A stretch of 64,000 nt of DNA from Candidatus Woesearchaeota archaeon (GCA_016185945.1 JACPMR010000011.1:633-64632), one strand, 5' to 3'; counted from the first letter of the stretch, positions 29,817 to 63,433 are shown. Numbers and translations: made by a program. The notes: a model not told the origin generated them from the sequence alone.

Positions 29817-29989
29817 GGGGCAGTAGCTCAGCCTGGGTATTGAAGCAGGCTTAGCCGGGCTTTCCTTCAGGAAAGAGCACACAACTTTTCCAGTTGGCTT
29901 AAACGGCTGAAGACGGTATTTTGAGCAAAGAAATTTGCAATGAAATGTCCGATACCGTGGAGTCAGGAGTTCAAATCTCCTCTGCCCCA
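29817..29989 (+). tRNA. tRNA-Phe(GAA) with three introns: 36 nt in the D-loop (29838..29873), 22 nt in the anticodon-stem 5' strand (29883..29904), 41 nt in the anticodon-stem 3' strand (29915..29955). CCA not encoded.
   Basis: Joining the exons gives GGGGCAG-TA-GCTC-AGCCTGGGA-GAGC-A-CACGG-CTGAAGA-CCGTG-GAGTC-AGGAG-TTCAAAT-CTCCT-CTGCCCC-A, with all four stems pairing. ORF-track 29781..29990(-) is a spurious overlap. Confidence 0.75.
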
Positions 29990-30039
29990 CTCTTAATATT
30001 TTTGAATTTTTTTATTAATTATTTTAAATCAACCATCAT

Positions 30040-53579: not shown

Positions 53580-53963
53580 TTATTTCACAAATTCCACATT
53601 TTCCATGTCTTCAAATTGATTATCCCCAGTCAGAAACTTTATTTTGTTTTCTTTGGCAAAAACATATCCGATGCAGTCTACATAACTCAAATCCTTGCTT
53701 TTATTTTCTGCCTTGAATATCATGGCTTTTTTAATTAATGAATCATCAACTTCAATTACAAACGGCTTATATTTTTGATAGTAGAATTCGGCTTTGTCAA
53801 TCCCATGCAGTATGTATAAGCGATAATACAATTCCATTAAATTCAGTTTTGTTGTTGCAATGCCTATATTTTTTAAATAACCCTTATAATTCGGATTGCC
53901 GTTAATTATTTCAAGGAATGCATAAGTATCATAAAATAGGATAATCTCTTCTTCCATGCGCAT
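53580..53963 (-). CDS. vapC: PIN-domain toxin (VapC-like).
   Basis: Acidic residues at FYDTYAF, MELYY, SYVDCIGY and LTGD. Confidence 0.7.
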   Translation of the reverse strand: MRMEEEIILFYDTYAFLEIINGNPNYKGYLKNIGIATTKLNLMELYYRLYILHGIDKAEFYYQKYKPFVIEVDDSLIKKAMIFKAENKSKDLSYVDCIGYVFAKENKIKFLTGDNQFEDMENVEFVK

Positions 53964-54194
53964 TTATCCCTTCCTGAATTTTCTGTCGGAAGAGCTTTCC
54001 CAATCTCTTCTAGATAAATCTTTAAGCTGCTGCCCAGTAAGTTTTGTTTTTAGAGTTCCAAAAGTATCGCTTAAATCCCCCTTTTTGAATATACTTATAA
54101 CTATTTCATCGCCTTCCTTGATATTTTGCTTCTGGACAATTTCTCTTGGGATTATAACCCCAATCGAGCTGCCCCATTTCTTTGCAGTTACCAT
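53964..54194 (-). CDS. vapB: AbrB/MazE-type antitoxin (VapB-like).
   Basis: MVTAKKWGSSIGVIIPREIVQKQNIKEGDEIVI swapped-hairpin fold. Confidence 0.6.
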   Translation of the reverse strand: MVTAKKWGSSIGVIIPREIVQKQNIKEGDEIVISIFKKGDLSDTFGTLKTKLTGQQLKDLSRRDWESSSDRKFRKG

Positions 54195-54266: not shown

Positions 54267-55535
54267 TCACAACTCCAATTCCAAAATCCTGCTAACTTCC
54301 TCTTTAACCCTCCTTTCAAAATCAGGCACTATTTCTCCTTCCTGCTTTTCGGTTACTAGAATCCTCATCAGATTTTTTATCAATTCTTCCTCCTTTTCCA
54401 GAGTCAAATTTTCCAGTTTTATCTGCCCCAAATGCTCTTTTATCAAAAACGATTCAATATCCTCGACATTTCTTGCATCAGTCTTCACTTCTTCAAATTC
54501 CTTTGAGCTTACAGCATGCGAGCTTTTCATCACAAAATATGCTGATTTGTTGTAAAGATATTCAAAAATTTCCTTGAAATCTATGTCGCTTGGCTTGCCA
54601 CTTTCCAAGGTGCCATTCAATCTTATCAAAACAAGGGTATTATTCAATTCCTTGTTTTTGAAATGCTCCAAAATTTTGTTTTTTACCCCATCAGGGCTTA
54701 AATGGTTGCAATCAACTTCTAATTTCTCAACATTATAGATTTGTATCGGCTCCCATTTAACATTTTCGTCTTCAACAATAAAAAAGCCGCCTCTCTCAAG
54801 CTTTTCAAGCTCTGCAAAGCTGTTCGGGAACAAAGGCCCGGGATAAGCAATCCTTCCATAGCCCTCAATCTGCTTGTCGTCAACAATATGGACGTGCCCG
54901 CCTGCATAATAGTCAAAGCCCTTTGGCAGCAATGATAATGGCTGCGATAGTATATTCTCCATTTCCTTCGGCTTTAATTCATCAATTCCAGAATGAAACA
55001 AGAATATTTTATAGCCGTCTTCTTTTTCAAGATGCTCGGTAATCAATTTTTCATAATATGTTTTTTCCAAAGCACCTCTTTTGCCCAAAATTCCCGTGAT
55101 TTTTGCTCCTGTGTTCTTGTCGATTGTAAAATTCAGCTTTAATTTTCCGTTCTCAACAGTTCCTTTAAAGACATTAAAGAACAGTCCAGCTTCTTCCAGA
55201 ACATCAAGAATCGTCTTGCCGCTTGGGCTATAGTCATGGCTTCCTGGAACAATGTAAACTGGAATGCCTAAATCCTTTAATTGCTTGAATTTAGAAACAA
55301 CTGTCTTTAGATTGTCTAATCTTGGAAATGAAGTATTAAATAAATCGCCTGCTATAAGAATGAAATCTATCTTTTCCTTTATGCATTTGTCAATTGCCTT
55401 GCAGAAAGCCAAAGTGCTTATATCCTTCAGCTTTGGATCTCTCCAAGAGCCGATATGGCAGTCTGCTAAATGGGCGAATTTCATAAGATAAGGTAAGGTA
55501 TAATGATTTTTAAAGGTATTTATACCACTGGACAC
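54267..55535 (-). CDS. mre11: Mre11 DNA double-strand-break repair nuclease (calcineurin-like phosphoesterase).
   Basis: Motifs FAHLADCHIG, IAGDLFN and GSHD. Confidence 0.8.
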   Translation of the reverse strand: MSSGINTFKNHYTLPYLMKFAHLADCHIGSWRDPKLKDISTLAFCKAIDKCIKEKIDFILIAGDLFNTSFPRLDNLKTVVSKFKQLKDLGIPVYIVPGSHDYSPSGKTILDVLEEAGLFFNVFKGTVENGKLKLNFTIDKNTGAKITGILGKRGALEKTYYEKLITEHLEKEDGYKIFLFHSGIDELKPKEMENILSQPLSLLPKGFDYYAGGHVHIVDDKQIEGYGRIAYPGPLFPNSFAELEKLERGGFFIVEDENVKWEPIQIYNVEKLEVDCNHLSPDGVKNKILEHFKNKELNNTLVLIRLNGTLESGKPSDIDFKEIFEYLYNKSAYFVMKSSHAVSSKEFEEVKTDARNVEDIESFLIKEHLGQIKLENLTLEKEEELIKNLMRILVTEKQEGEIVPDFERRVKEEVSRILELEL

Positions 55536-55565
55536 TGGACATCTTTGGCTGAAGTATTTAAAGGA
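55501..55565 (+). promoter_or_regulatory. Copy A of a duplicated approximately 65-bp intergenic element: ATGATTTTT-TATTTATA-ACTGGACACTGGACAT-TTTG-TGAAGTATTTAAAGG (tandem TGGACA half-sites plus a BRE/TATA-like box).
   Basis: Aligns with 62524..62600. The TATTTAAA box sits about 30 nt upstream of the tRNA-Leu-like fragment. Confidence 0.4.
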
Positions 55566-55594
55566 AGAATTCTATCCTTAAGAATAAAGAAGAA

Positions 55595-55649
55595 TGGCCG
55601 AGTCTGGCCGATGCACTAACCTAAAATCCAGTTGACATCTACCCGCAAG
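55595..55649 (+). other. Degenerate tRNA-Leu-like 5' fragment (D-arm, anticodon-arm-like and variable-arm-like segments) directly upstream of the intact tRNA-Leu.
   Basis: TGGCCGAGTCTGGCCGATGCACTAACCTAAAATCCAGTTGACATCTACCCGCAAG parallels GGCAGAGTTCGGCTTAATGCGCTGGACTTAAGATCCAGATGACACTACCCGTGTCA but lacks a pairing anticodon stem and a 3' half. Confidence 0.35.
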
Positions 55650-55692
55650 AATAATCATATTAGTGAAGTATTTAAACTTTGCTATCGGCAAA

Positions 55693-55803
55693 GCCAGGGT
55701 GGCAGAGTTCGGCTTAATGCGCTGGACTTAAGATCCAGATGACACTACCCGTGTCACGCGGGTTCAAAGTCATCATGGGATGCTGGAAATCCCGTCCCTG
55801 GCG
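55693..55803 (+). tRNA. tRNA-Leu(TAA) with an approximately 21-nt intron inside the T-loop (about 55769..55789).
   Basis: Acceptor GCCAGGG/CCCTGGC; anticodon arm CTGGA-CTTAAGA-TCCAG; variable arm TGACAC-TACCC-GTGTCA; T-stem GCGGG/CCCGT flanking TTCAAA[gtcatcatgggatgctggaaa]T. Confidence 0.7.
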
Positions 55804-55886
55804 CCGAAAAATATTGGATTTATAATTTAATGGGAAGGTGTAGTTTACAGAAAAGCTTATAATAAATCTTTTTATTCTTTATTTTA

Positions 55887-56129
55887 ATGAAATCCAAAAA
55901 GTGGTGGCAAGCTCGATATTTTGGAGAAAGAATATATACCCCTTATGAATATCTCTATGGTTCTGGGGTGTCAATAATTGTTATTGGCATTATTTTTCTT
56001 TTAATAACTATTTTTATTAACTTAAATATTAAAAATTTAATTTTTTCAGGTTTTATAATATTTTTAGGTTTGGCTGTTGTCGTAATCTTGAAAATATTGA
56101 AAAAAATATTTGTAGATAATAAGAAATAA
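55887..56129 (+). CDS. Small membrane protein (2 TM).
   Basis: Hydrophobic ORF only. Confidence 0.3.
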   Translation: MKSKKWWQARYFGERIYTPYEYLYGSGVSIIVIGIIFLLITIFINLNIKNLIFSGFIIFLGLAVVVILKILKKIFVDNKK

Positions 56130-56855: not shown

Positions 56856-58385
56856 TCATCCCAACTCACTAAACTCCATAACCACTTCTTCCTTTCCCTT
56901 TAATGTCTTTTTAACTACATCCTCAAAATAAGGAATGCTTATCGGAGTCACAAACCTTGCAAAATTGCTTGTTATGATTGCTTCTCCTATGTCAAGTGAT
57001 GCAATTGTCCTGTCGTCATCGCTTAAGTCCTGTGAGGCGCTCTCAATTATTGCCTGCCTTTCAGGCTTCATCTCAATTCCCAAAATTATTTTTGTGTTCA
57101 TATTTGCCAGTATTTCGCGAGGAATCAATGAAGGCAGTTGTGTTATTGCAGTCAATCCAACTTTGAACTTTCTTCCTTCCCTTGCAATCGTGGCAAATAT
57201 ATTTGGCCCTGCCTCAAGCACTTCTTTTCCTAAAACTCTTGGCGCTTCTTCAAGCACGATTGAAACAACCGGCTTTGAGTTAAGTAACCCATTCATTTTA
57301 TAATACTTATACTTGTTAAAAATCTCGTTTGCGATTAAGCTTCCAATCAATAATTCAACTGCGCCGGAAAAATTTGATGTGTCAACAATAACAATTCTTC
57401 CCTCCTCAAGATGTTTGCAAATATCACTAATTGTTGTAAACCCAGAATTAAGCTGAAATACTCCGTTGCAAAATAACTGATTGTTTGCAAACTCCAAGTC
57501 AAGAAGATAAAGCAGTCTTCTCCTCACAACAATCAATGTCTCTGCCCGAAAAGCACTTTCAATGCTTAATGGCTTCTCTAAAATTATCGCTTCTATCCAC
57601 TTATCGCCAAATTCCTTGTAGTACAGGCTCATCGCCTGCTTCTGCGCATCGCTGAAATCAACTACACCATCAAAATGATGTGGCTTTATGACGTCAAGAT
57701 TTATTCTTAGAGTGTTTGTCCCTATCGGTGCATTTTTTGACGTGTAATAAACAATGTTTTCCTTGATTGGATGCTCCTTTAATCCAATTTTGTTCCTTCC
57801 ATAATACTCATCATGCGGGTCCAAAACAAGAATGCCAAAATTCCTTCCAAAAGAGTTCCAAAGCAAATTAGAGACAAGCACGCTTTTGCCCCTTCCTGTT
57901 GTTCCGGCAATCAAAATATGGTGGGAAAAAACCTTTTCCCCGTCAAGATAAATCGGTACATCAAGCACTTTTGAGCCGCTTCTCAAGTTGCCAACAAACA
58001 AAGCATTTTTTGGCTTTGTTAAAAATGATAAATCATCCTCTTTTATCTCCCTTACTTCAGAAAACACATTCGGCAATGATTTGCTGACAATCGCATTCCT
58101 GTCTCTGATTGTAACTAATGACTTCATCATTGCAAGCATATAATTTCTCAAGTTCGCATCAAAAAGCTCAAAATCAGTTCCTTCCTCAAGCTTCATTCCC
58201 GAAATCATCTCAAGGTTCTGCTGGGATATTTGGCTTCCATAGATTAAGTCATAAACCTGCAGCAGGATTTTTCCATTTGGCGAGTCAGCAACAAGCAATT
58301 CTCCAATCTCAATCTCTGCTTCTGATTTCTGCCTTGCAATAATCTTGCCAAACTCCCCAGAAATAACCTGTCCCTTAATCAACAC
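56856..58385 (-). CDS. herA: HerA-type ATPase (FtsK/HerA superfamily, DUF87).
   Basis: Walker [14 protein letters not shown], an N-terminal HAS-barrel-like region and a C-terminal helical domain. Confidence 0.75.
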
Positions 58386-61240: not shown

Positions 61241-61476
61241 TCGAATGGTGAGCGAGGCGAACCTCGCATGTCACTGATTTTTGTCCAGTGACATGCGAGA
61301 GCTCGCTGTTGCTTGCGAGAACGCTCGCAAGCTCGCGTTCATATCTCGCTCGCTCAACTCTATAAGCATGAAATGCATTCTATAAACTAAAATTCAATCC
61401 GCTCGCTACGCTCGCATAAAATAGTGCTCGGCAAAAATTCTTCTGTCATTGAATTTTGCCTCGACTGTTTATTGAA
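61241..61476. repeat. Two adjacent GC-rich repeat units: a nested palindrome (61241..61370) and a TTCAATCCGC...CGGCAAAAA unit (61393..61476).
   Basis: tcagtgacatgcgag/ctcgcatgtcactga inverted repeats. Second unit nearly identical to 36381..36462. Confidence 0.55.
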
Positions 61477-62363: not shown

Positions 62364-62523
62364 TAAAACACCTTTTTACTGGAAAAGAATTAGTGTTGAT
62401 TTATAAAAATGTTGTGGAAGAATGAATAGCGGGTTTATCTAACCTTTTAAACATACAATACTTAATTTTAATCAAATTCCTTTTATTTTTAAACCACCTT
62501 AAACATTGTCTTAATTACCAAAT

Positions 62524-62600
62524 TATGATTTTTGGTTCTCCAATATATAGTTTGTTGTAGCAATGGACACTGGACATTTCTGTGTGAAATATTTAAACCA
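62524..62600 (+). promoter_or_regulatory. Copy B of the duplicated intergenic element (ATGATTTTT...TGGACACTGGACATTTCTGTGTGAAATATTTAAACC).
   Basis: Aligns with 55501..55565. TATA-like box about 50 nt upstream of the LAGLIDADG ORF. Confidence 0.4.
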
Positions 62601-62646
62601 GAAAATCATTTACATAGTTTCAACCCATAAATCTCGGTGATTTAAA

Positions 62647-63248
62647 ATGGAATTTAATTTAGATTCATTAAGTAATGAAAGGTTAGAGATATTGACTAGA
62701 ATACACGCCCATTTATGTGGAGATGGTAATTTGTGCTTCTATAAAACTTCTGAGAAAGACAGGATAAATAGGGCTTCTATATCTTATTTTAATACAAACA
62801 TAGATTTAATTAATTCTTTTAGAACAGATATGAATAATTTATTTGGGGTAAAAATGACATATATTCCTAAGCTAACAAGAGTATCAGTTCAAAGTTTAAG
62901 AATTGCAAGAGTATTATCTAAATTAGGAGAGTATGGGGCAAGAGACTGGAGAATACCTAGAATAATAAAAATGCTAATAGAAATATTAGATTAGAGTGGA
63001 TTAAGGCTTTTTGTTATGATGAAGGATACACTCCTAAAGGTAGGTCAATTATTAGAATAAAATCAATGAATATTAATGGTTTAAAAGATGTCAAAGGTCT
63101 TCTGCATTCTATTGAAATTGATTCATGGATTACAGGTATAAATTGTGATGATTCAGGGTATTTAAACATTAGAAAAATGAGAGAGTTAGAAGATTTCTAT
63201 AAGAAACCATCAAGAAAAAAGATAATAGCGGGAGGAAGACTTCCCTGA
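62647..63248 (+). pseudogene. Double-motif LAGLIDADG homing endonuclease, disrupted by a -1 frameshift near 62990.
   Basis: Motif 1 RIHAHLCGDGNL in frame A (62647..62994). Motif 2 WIKAFCYDEGY in the next frame, open from 62961 to 63248. Confidence 0.5.
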
Positions 63249-63380
63249 GCATTGCTCATTTTGAACTTCCGACCTTTCTCCCTAGCTTTTGGCTAGTATG
63301 GGTGTCTAGAGCTGATAGGCTATATGAGCCCATCGGGCAAACAGGCACTATTAAGTGTCTCCTGGCTGCCCTATCCCGCT
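63226..63380 (-). tRNA. Initiator-type tRNA-Met(CAT) (A1:U72), apparently carrying four introns: D-arm (about 19 nt), anticodon loop 37/38 (about 19 nt), 43/44 (about 22 nt) and T-loop (about 20 nt).
   Basis: Minus strand reads AGCGGGA-TA-GGGC-AGCCAGGAGA[..]GCCC-G-ATGGG-CTCATA[..]A-CCCAT-[..]AGGTC-GGAAG-TTCAAA[..]T-CTTCC-TCCCGCT-A. 155 nt total = about 75 mature + 80 intronic. Each intron has its own hairpin. Confidence 0.6.
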
Positions 63381-63433
63381 ATAGTAACTGAGAATAAAAC
63401 GCGCTTTATAAACGTTGCTGAAAAATATGCAAA

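Follow-up and report, generated by a model that had tools for sequence, protein, structure and literature searches.

In a 64-kb stretch of genomic DNA (hereafter the window; G+C approximately 37%) from a tiny groundwater archaeon of the Woesearchaeota, a DPANN lineage, the gene order is mre11 (54267-55484, minus strand), a small membrane ORF (55887-56129, plus strand), two small ORFs, herA and corA. A tRNA-Leu(UAA) gene with an interrupted T-loop, preceded by a partial copy of the same tRNA that we term element U, lies next to mre11. The first-pass annotation had located the pair exactly between mre11 and herA; it does lie in that interval, but its immediate neighbours are mre11 and the small membrane ORF, with herA (56856-58385, minus strand) about 1 kb further on. 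ORF 55887-56129 has no Pfam match. Downstream of mre11, at 53580-54194 (minus strand), inspection by eye suggests a PIN-like ORF of 127 aa and a 76-aa ORF whose N-terminus is AbrB-like; the two occupy the place expected for rad50 in the usual herA-mre11-rad50-nurA order. The features discussed below are as follows.

55526..55541, plus strand: two overlapping CACTGGACA boxes (M-box), conserved, the motif having four matches in the window against 0.24 expected
55551..55562, plus strand: P1, a BRE/TATA-like box GAAGTATTTAAA with its TATA at 55555-55562, conserved in related loci
55551..55925, plus strand: block of about 375 bp missing in relative L031 (pairwise alignment, blastn)
55595..55645, plus strand: element U, a half-copy of tRNA positions 8-47 (alignment, U profile, conservation)
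55665..55676, plus strand: TATA2, a second GAAGTATTTAAA that directly repeats the box at 55551
55685..55692, plus strand: leader strand T-CGGC and 3-nt bulge AAA before G1, pairing with G73-CCG-A (covariation)
55693..55768, plus strand: tRNA-Leu(UAA) 5' exon, positions 1-59 (direct reading, Rfam in E-value mode, ARAGORN on the spliced form)
55769..55789, plus strand: 21-nt bulge-helix-bulge (BHB) intron at position 59/60 (direct reading, covariation in 15 lineages, cloverleaf after removal)
55790..55807, plus strand: tRNA-Leu(UAA) 3' exon and trailer (direct reading, spliced cloverleaf, covariation)
62553..62600, plus strand: orphan P1 copy TAGCAATGGACACTGGACATTTCTGTGTGAAATATTTAAAC, which aligns with P1 of L043, L148 and L125 (synteny)

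Default ARAGORN and Rfam at its gathering threshold each report zero RNA genes across the 64-kb window, and the tRNA-Leu(UAA) gene is also missed by ARAGORN with the intron option on; Rfam in E-value mode recovers the 5' part only (55693-55756, 23.7 bits). Direct reading gives an acceptor stem GCCAGGG/CCCTGGC, a D-stem of 3 bp, an anticodon arm CTGGA-CTTAAGA-TCCAG with TAA at 55729-55731, a variable arm TGACAC-TACCC-GTGTCA (55740-55756) with a 6-bp stem and a 5-nt loop, and a T-stem GCGGG/CCCGT. The 3' exon supplies T60, the T-stem strand CCCGT, the acceptor strand CCCTGGC and G73 (55803), and is followed by the trailer CCGA. The class-II body, the long variable arm, the leucine anticodon and G37 within the loop CTTAAGA are as expected for tRNA-Leu, and 55693-55803 (plus strand) is, from its predicted structure, a functional tRNA-Leu(UAA) gene interrupted by an intron.

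The two strands of the T-stem are separated by 28 nt rather than 7. The intervening sequence is a predicted substrate of the archaeal splicing endonuclease that folds as a BHB motif, in which the T-stem GCGGG/CCCGT is the outer helix, the T-loop bases TTCA (55763-55766) pair with TGGA (55784-55787) as the central helix, 3-nt bulges AA|G and AA|T flank the central helix, and CATC (55771-55774) pairs with GATG (55779-55782) as the inner helix, with one T.C mismatch beside the bulge. Under the published rule the central helix comprises 4 bp and cleavage occurs after the second bulge base (PMC4090602), and application of this rule assigns the intron to 55769-55789 at position 59/60, which is among the listed non-canonical intron sites (PMC4090602); the central helix of canonical introns includes the first two anticodon bases (PMC4090602). 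Placement relied on BHB geometry, a deletion scan with ARAGORN being too permissive for this purpose. Deletion of 55769-55789 produces a clean ARAGORN tRNA-Leu(taa) cloverleaf with the 7-nt T-loop TTCAAAT, so that the earlier reading of a class-II tRNA-Leu(TAA) with a T-loop intron is borne out by both structure and spliced cloverleaf, and its estimate of about 21 nt to be removed from TTCAAA[...]T proves to be exact.

Related loci were collected by scanning metagenomes for this anticodon arm followed by GGGTTCRAA; 120 loci were returned, about 20 of which share the long variable arm and carry extra sequence behind TTCRAA. Viral contigs scanned for the tRNA pattern gave no match. Across 15 parsed lineages the central helix forms 54 of 60 possible pairs in the proposed register and 26-36 of 60 in shifted registers. 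Covariation is evident in this helix, as TTCA:TGAA/TGGA alternates with TTCG:CGAA/CGGA/CGGG: the partners of TTCG T-loops start with C and those of TTCA T-loops with T or G. Intron lengths in the relatives range from 12 to 25 nt, with introns of 66-68 nt in L047 and L081, and relatives with short introns have only a loop in place of the inner helix, corresponding to the relaxed form of the BHB. In most lineages the intron begins with a sequence like that of the variable-arm 3' strand end joined to the T-stem 5' strand, a likeness that may reflect either local duplication or function. From these comparisons the T-loop intron of tRNA-Leu(UAA) is lineage-wide in this Woesearchaeota-type clade. 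Introns of the BHB type at position 59/60 are known in Crenarchaeota and Nanoarchaeota, and the geometry seen here does not differ from theirs in any essential respect: the T-stem as outer helix, the two 3-nt bulges and the cut after the second bulge base are alike. Joining at 59/60 is also seen in the permuted tRNAs of Thermofilum and Cyanidioschyzon. The intron-bearing tRNA thus belongs to an already known type of interrupted archaeal tRNA gene. Additional inserts are present within the same tRNA-Leu(UAA) of L046/L114, L047, L050 and L151; that of L046 lies between the T-stem and the acceptor 3' strand, that of L047 in the D-arm, and those of L050 and L151 in the acceptor 5' strand, where the two have the common sequence TCGAATGCGAGTGAGCGAAG.GAACTCGCTCAC.

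The discriminator base of this tRNA departs from the leucine norm. A73 is the usual, near-universal leucine identity element, and an ordinary tRNA-Leu(CAA) in L066 has it, whereas G73 (55803) is found in the window and in all 15 parsed relatives (L039-L151). Reassignment of UUA to serine was considered on account of G73 and assessed in alignments of Mre11 (35 orthologues) and HerA (18 orthologues) at the columns occupied in the window by TTA or TTG. These columns exchange with CTN at a frequency of 36-38%, then with Ile, Met and Phe, and in the same alignments Ser falls outside the eight commonest classes (no more than 1.2% at TTA and 0.5% at TTG). Such substitution patterns contradict the reassignment, and because UUR columns exchange with CTN, Ile, Met and Phe we take the tRNA to read leucine. 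A conserved G73 on a tRNA that clearly reads leucine raises a question about the identity rules of tRNA-Leu in this lineage.

Upstream of the gene, the segment 55595-55645 aligns with tRNA bases 55699-55751 with a local score of 35; dinucleotide shuffles score 15.2 +/- 2.2 and none of 2000 reaches 35, in agreement with the first-pass annotation, which had derived this segment from the 5' two-thirds of the same tRNA. The two repeats are approximately 70% identical. Element U starts with a hairpin, GGCC (55596-55599) pairing with GGCC (55606-55609) in the window, and ends in a tail TTGACATCTACCCG (55632-55645) that copies the 5' strand and loop of the variable arm; the variable-arm 3' strand, the T-arm and the acceptor strand are missing from the window copy. 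The previously noted lack of a 3' half and of a pairable anticodon stem is confirmed, as CTAAC and CCAGT, the equivalents of the anticodon-stem strands, have no possible pairing. With a profile built from U copies the window U scores 54.4 bits, compared with 23.6 for the tRNA beside it, and no third U-like copy appears within the 64-kb window. U lies upstream of the T-loop-intron tRNA-Leu(UAA) in 18 of the 19 related metagenomic loci, a count inflated by kinship among the loci, which also share the anticodon arm of the search pattern. The offset between U and tRNA is 98-114 nt in these relatives (about 105), and more where extra introns intervene, and blastn similarity of the related loci to the window spans the half-copy and the tRNA alike. 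Two candidate identities for U were rejected: as a small ORF (ATG GCC GAG...) its start codon is not conserved (L039, L043 and L151), and as a C/D-box RNA it has CUGA in about half of the copies and lacks a C box.

The existence of such a repeat beside a disrupted tRNA gene has a precedent in Caldiarchaeum subterraneum, where a 5' fragment of tRNA-Thr (tRNA-Thr-F) occurs upstream of an intron-gained tRNA-Thr (Sugahara 2012, PMC3293823). That fragment lies 1.8 kb away across an insert bearing a recombinase and varies within one population, and integration of an element was proposed to account for both the fragment and the intron (PMC3293823). By analogy it is the closest precedent for U, since both are 5' tRNA repeats upstream of a gene with a non-canonical intron. 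U could likewise be the displaced attL of a mobile element that integrated in the 5' part of the tRNA and brought the intron along; the length of the repeat, about 50 nt, is typical of archaeal att sites, and the module has been mobile in the window genome (see below). We nevertheless regard this as very unlikely. The gap between U and the gene is only 44-47 nt, has no integrase or any other ORF, and is flanked by repeats that are about 70% identical rather than exact. The Caldiarchaeum fragment also differs from U in that the latter sits about 45 nt from its gene with no intervening element, is fixed in this compact arrangement in 18 lineages, and has a conserved promoter of its own and a head that appears to be under purifying selection. 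Integration could at most describe a very old origin, not the present nature of U, and the integration relic suggested in the first-pass annotation is not upheld in the sense of a recent scar.

It is extremely improbable that U is the 5' half of a split (trans-spliced) tRNA or another kind of 5' piece, to be joined to a 3' half encoded elsewhere. In Nanoarchaeum and Caldivirga, tRNAs occur in split and tri-split form with 3' halves in common (PMC4090602), and U resembles those of Nanoarchaeum equitans and Caldivirga maquilingensis in being a piece of tRNA with a promoter of its own, in a DPANN genome. However, U has no acceptor strand or conserved complementary flank and adjoins an intact gene: positions 1-7 are replaced by an A-rich leader, and the 5' acceptor strand is missing from U in every lineage. 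In the window, as in many of its relatives, the anticodon stem of U does not pair, a search of the 64-kb window for GGTTCRA T-arms has one relevant match, that of the intact gene itself, and the sequence 3' to U is not conserved although split halves need a conserved complementary flank. The proposal of a split half is therefore not sustained. The sole locus of the 19 without a separate U is L081 (1750-1960, minus strand), where a promoter and A-rich leader of the U type are fused directly to tRNA position 8; this locus has a 66-nt T-loop insert, and no 5' acceptor strand was found in its 4.7 kb. The arrangement could be read in favour of a split gene, and the tRNA-Leu(UAA) locus of L081 is either a dead recombinant or truly split. 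We read it rather as a probable deletion that arose by recombination between U and the gene, from which it follows that the U and tRNA repeats do recombine.

The two parts of U, a head comprising the D and anticodon parts and a tail comprising the variable part, have evolved differently. The head has an identity of 0.68 with its own tRNA and 0.67 with the tRNAs of other lineages, and a mean identity of 0.70 with other U copies (best 0.89); being no closer to its own tRNA than to foreign ones, it derives from a duplication that predates the lineages and has escaped homogenisation. On these comparisons U is seen as the product of an old partial duplication of the tRNA gene (positions 8-47). Conservation between lineages, expressed as mean z, is 5.0 for the U head and 5.05 for the tRNA D-arm, compared with 0.77, the level of chance, for the spacer between U and tRNA; in the pair L083 and L131 the head is 0.89 identical and the spacer 0.50. 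This is not the behaviour of a neutral pseudogene, nor of the degenerate relic envisaged in the first-pass annotation, in view of a head as conserved as the D-arm beside a random spacer and the occurrence of U in nearly all loci. The hairpin GGCC-N6-GGCC at the start of the head is predicted in most lineages by MFE folding, and compensated variants occur (GGCT/AGCC in L050, GCTG/CAGC in L125 and TCCG/CGGA in L066); it is absent from L080 and L139. Some copies have an intact anticodon-arm part (CTGAA/TTCAG in L039) and in many, including that of the window, it is broken, so that no single structure of U is universal. We interpret the pattern of conservation as purifying selection on the head in its own right, the 5' hairpin included.

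These properties bear on the possibility that U has no function as RNA, and is an old partial tandem duplicate, kept since the active promoter P1 stands upstream of it and only seemingly conserved, through short-patch gene conversion that refreshes it from the highly conserved tRNA. Each of the head measurements runs against this: the near-equal distance to own and foreign tRNAs, the excess of conservation over the adjacent spacer and the compensatory changes in the hairpin. Furthermore, states common to U copies and lacking in the tRNA (GAGAAT, AACTGAAC and A at position 37) cannot be preserved by conversion sourced from the tRNA. The tail, on the other hand, is where such an explanation finds support. 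Its identity is 0.84 with its own tRNA's variable arm and 0.60 with those of other lineages, and the first 12 bases of the variable arm match the own tail at 10.8 of 12 positions as against 7.6 of 12 for others, the window tail being the least typical, with a 1-nt indel and a resemblance to the L046-type arm. The match extends to unpaired bases of the loop and mirrors lineage-specific changes there (GAACCA in L151, and likewise L050); for this reason gene conversion or a similar homology-driven process fits the tail better than selection for pairing. The identity between U and tRNA ends at different 3' positions among lineages, the anticodon-arm part has decayed in many of them, and L081 resembles a recombinant of the two repeats. 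On balance, lack of function is possible but we consider it unlikely.

The conserved sequences upstream of U and of the tRNA suggest how the locus may be transcribed. In related loci P1 is conserved as RAG-TTTATAAA behind the M-box, which precedes the P1 TATA by 11-13 nt in 14 of the 19 tRNA-Leu modules; P1 lies 40 nt upstream of U in the window and is the likely promoter of the whole U and tRNA precursor. The 5' edge of TATA2 is 24 nt before the tRNA in the window, and falls at -20 to -25 in all lineages but one, whereas ordinary tRNA genes in the same loci have their TATA edge at -31 to -35. On that spacing TATA2 is too close to give a full-length transcript or one with a leader, although, being conserved as a TATA-like box, it might fire itself. 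The leader does appear to be transcribed. Its bases -7 to -4 are paired with G73 plus the first three bases of the trailer, base -4 being the partner of G73, and the helix so formed has 54 of 60 possible pairs in the 15 lineages against at most 17 of 60 when the register is shifted, with the pair types CGGC/GCCG, CGGT/GCCG, CAGC/GCTG, CAGT/GCTG and CAAC/GTTG. This helix often reaches 6-8 bp, and a 3-nt bulge precedes G1. Since the covariation is double-sided and acts at the RNA level, at least 8-11 nt of leader should be present as RNA, and because TATA2 is too close to produce it, the tRNA transcript would start upstream of TATA2. We infer a single precursor running from P1 through U and the spacer to the tRNA, of which U is most likely the 5' leader. 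Structured or tRNA-like 5' leaders are known from other systems, and precursor helices of archaeal rRNA and of permuted tRNAs similarly join leader and trailer, with a 3-nt bulge at the mature 5' end. The present helix differs from a full BHB in that only one bulge is conserved; circularisation of the tRNA through such a motif was rejected, because the lineages do not keep a second bulge and an extra A would remain after the cut.

Among the relatives compared, the position of the module beside mre11 is peculiar to the window. The Mre11 protein encoded here matches exactly one deposited under Candidatus Woesearchaeota archaeon and has more than 100 homologues at 81-89% identity. Neither the tRNA nor U occurs next to mre11 in any of 37 species-level relatives. 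The gap between herA and mre11 is 4-5 nt in L002, L003 and L026 and from 50 nt to 3.2 kb in other relatives, a range that makes this junction a variable spot in the clade; the suspicion in the first-pass annotation that the interval had been invaded was well founded. In L031, which is otherwise collinear, the small membrane ORF adjoins mre11 and a block of about 375 bp comprising P1, U, TATA2, the tRNA and 120 nt of 3' flank is absent, with a short repeat TTTGG at both junctions of the block. A relative with the same spacer but no tRNA-like sequence had been named beforehand as evidence against the repeat, and L031 is formally such a relative, but what its spacer indicates is relocation of the module and not a chance similarity of U to the tRNA. 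The 3' flank of the block supplies the start codon of ORF 55887-56129, whose first 12 codons or so lie inside the block; the L031 homologue has no ATG there.

The likely source of the block can be recognised in L043, L124, L125 and L148. Their gene order follows that of the window from gatB to past corA, and they have the module between another tRNA gene and rnhB. This ancestral slot corresponds to window positions 62430-63250 on the other strand, about 7 kb away, and now holds approximately 800 nt of other DNA. The orphan P1 copy lies in the slot, between rnhB and another tRNA, where it has an inverted orientation and is followed by ORF 62647-62994. The module in its entirety, about 375 bp, would thus have moved from the site adjacent to rnhB into the promoter region of mre11. 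The M-box at 55526-55541 is both the resident motif upstream of mre11 and the 5' edge of P1, and in relatives without the module a CACTGGACA box is found 50-75 nt upstream of mre11. This shared box contains the left junction of the block, which makes recombination between P1 and the mre11 promoter likely, and the CACTGGACA box common to both promoters is the probable route of relocation. A single inversion between two M-box promoters was rejected, as the gene orientations do not fit. Boxes of this type occur in the window at 55526-55541, 61282-61290 (minus strand) and 62568-62576, and stand 11-13 nt before the TATAs of unrelated genes (mre11, tRNA-Leu, ORF 62647-62994 and a gene at approximately 61.1 kb). 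The CACTGGACA box is probably a site for a shared regulator or a promoter element of the clade.

Taken together, we consider it probable, with modest confidence, that the locus combines an intron-containing tRNA, an old and retained U, a precursor made from P1 with U as its leader, and a relocated module. On the present comparisons the most fitting description of U is a tRNA-derived leader element of the tRNA-Leu(UAA) locus that is conserved and under selection. The tRNA would be made from the U promoter as one long precursor in which U forms a structured, tRNA-like 5' leader, and U may aid the stability, folding or processing of this precursor. One conceivable role would be to cover the T-stem strand and the intron start until synthesis has reached the 3' part of the tRNA. 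Complementarity of the U tail covers the T-stem 5' strand and continues across the T-loop into the first intron bases; pairing is -12.0 kcal/mol within lineages and -10.5 kcal/mol between them, a weak difference equalled by 48 of 5000 permutations, and is absent in L050 and L066. A more specific and rather doubtful version of the leader role can be built on this complementarity, in which U mimics the body of the tRNA, its tail pairs with the T-stem 5' strand and the first bases of the T-loop intron, and formation of the splicing motif is thereby guided or gated. The tail would then compete with or replace the tRNA's own variable arm, with U acting as a folding chaperone or switch, a tentative notion that we think unlikely to be correct. 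The likeness of the intron to the variable 3' strand and T-stem 5' strand would form part of the same speculative scheme. Kissing of UUAA loops between U and the tRNA was rejected, as UUAA has been lost from many U copies.

Our limited literature search revealed no earlier description of a leader copied from the body of its own tRNA. tRNA fragments near disrupted genes are usually taken as the debris of mobile-element integration. Here, one such fragment appears to have been retained with a promoter across lineages, its head under selection and its tail in concerted evolution with the gene. If U does act in the precursor, a tRNA-derived leader would help to mature the tRNA from which it arose, which would bear on the origin and fixation of introns and split genes.

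The locus is also a lineage-wide example of a disrupted tRNA missed by standard finders. Disrupted tRNA genes are the main reason why the tRNA sets of DPANN genomes look incomplete. Many disrupted and unpredicted tRNA genes have been reported from such genomes (PMC5829648), and the window holds two further candidates. At 29817-29990 (plus strand) is a third hidden tRNA gene, GGGGCAG...CTGCCCC-A, with about 100 nt inserted, a D-arm TAGCTCAGCCTGGGTA and a T-arm AGGAGTTCAAATCTCCT; ARAGORN matches it with the intron option only, and the resulting 'Leu(taa)' with a 77-nt intron is an unreliable call. A further disrupted tRNA-like gene at 63255-63390 (minus strand), missed by ARAGORN and Rfam, combines a TATA at the normal distance (-31) with an acceptor stem AGCGGGA/TCCCGCT, and seems to be interrupted in the D region, behind the anticodon loop (CTCATA) and within the T-loop (GTTCAAAA...). 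The orthologous gene at 934-1055 of L043 is the upstream neighbour of the tRNA-Leu module in that locus.
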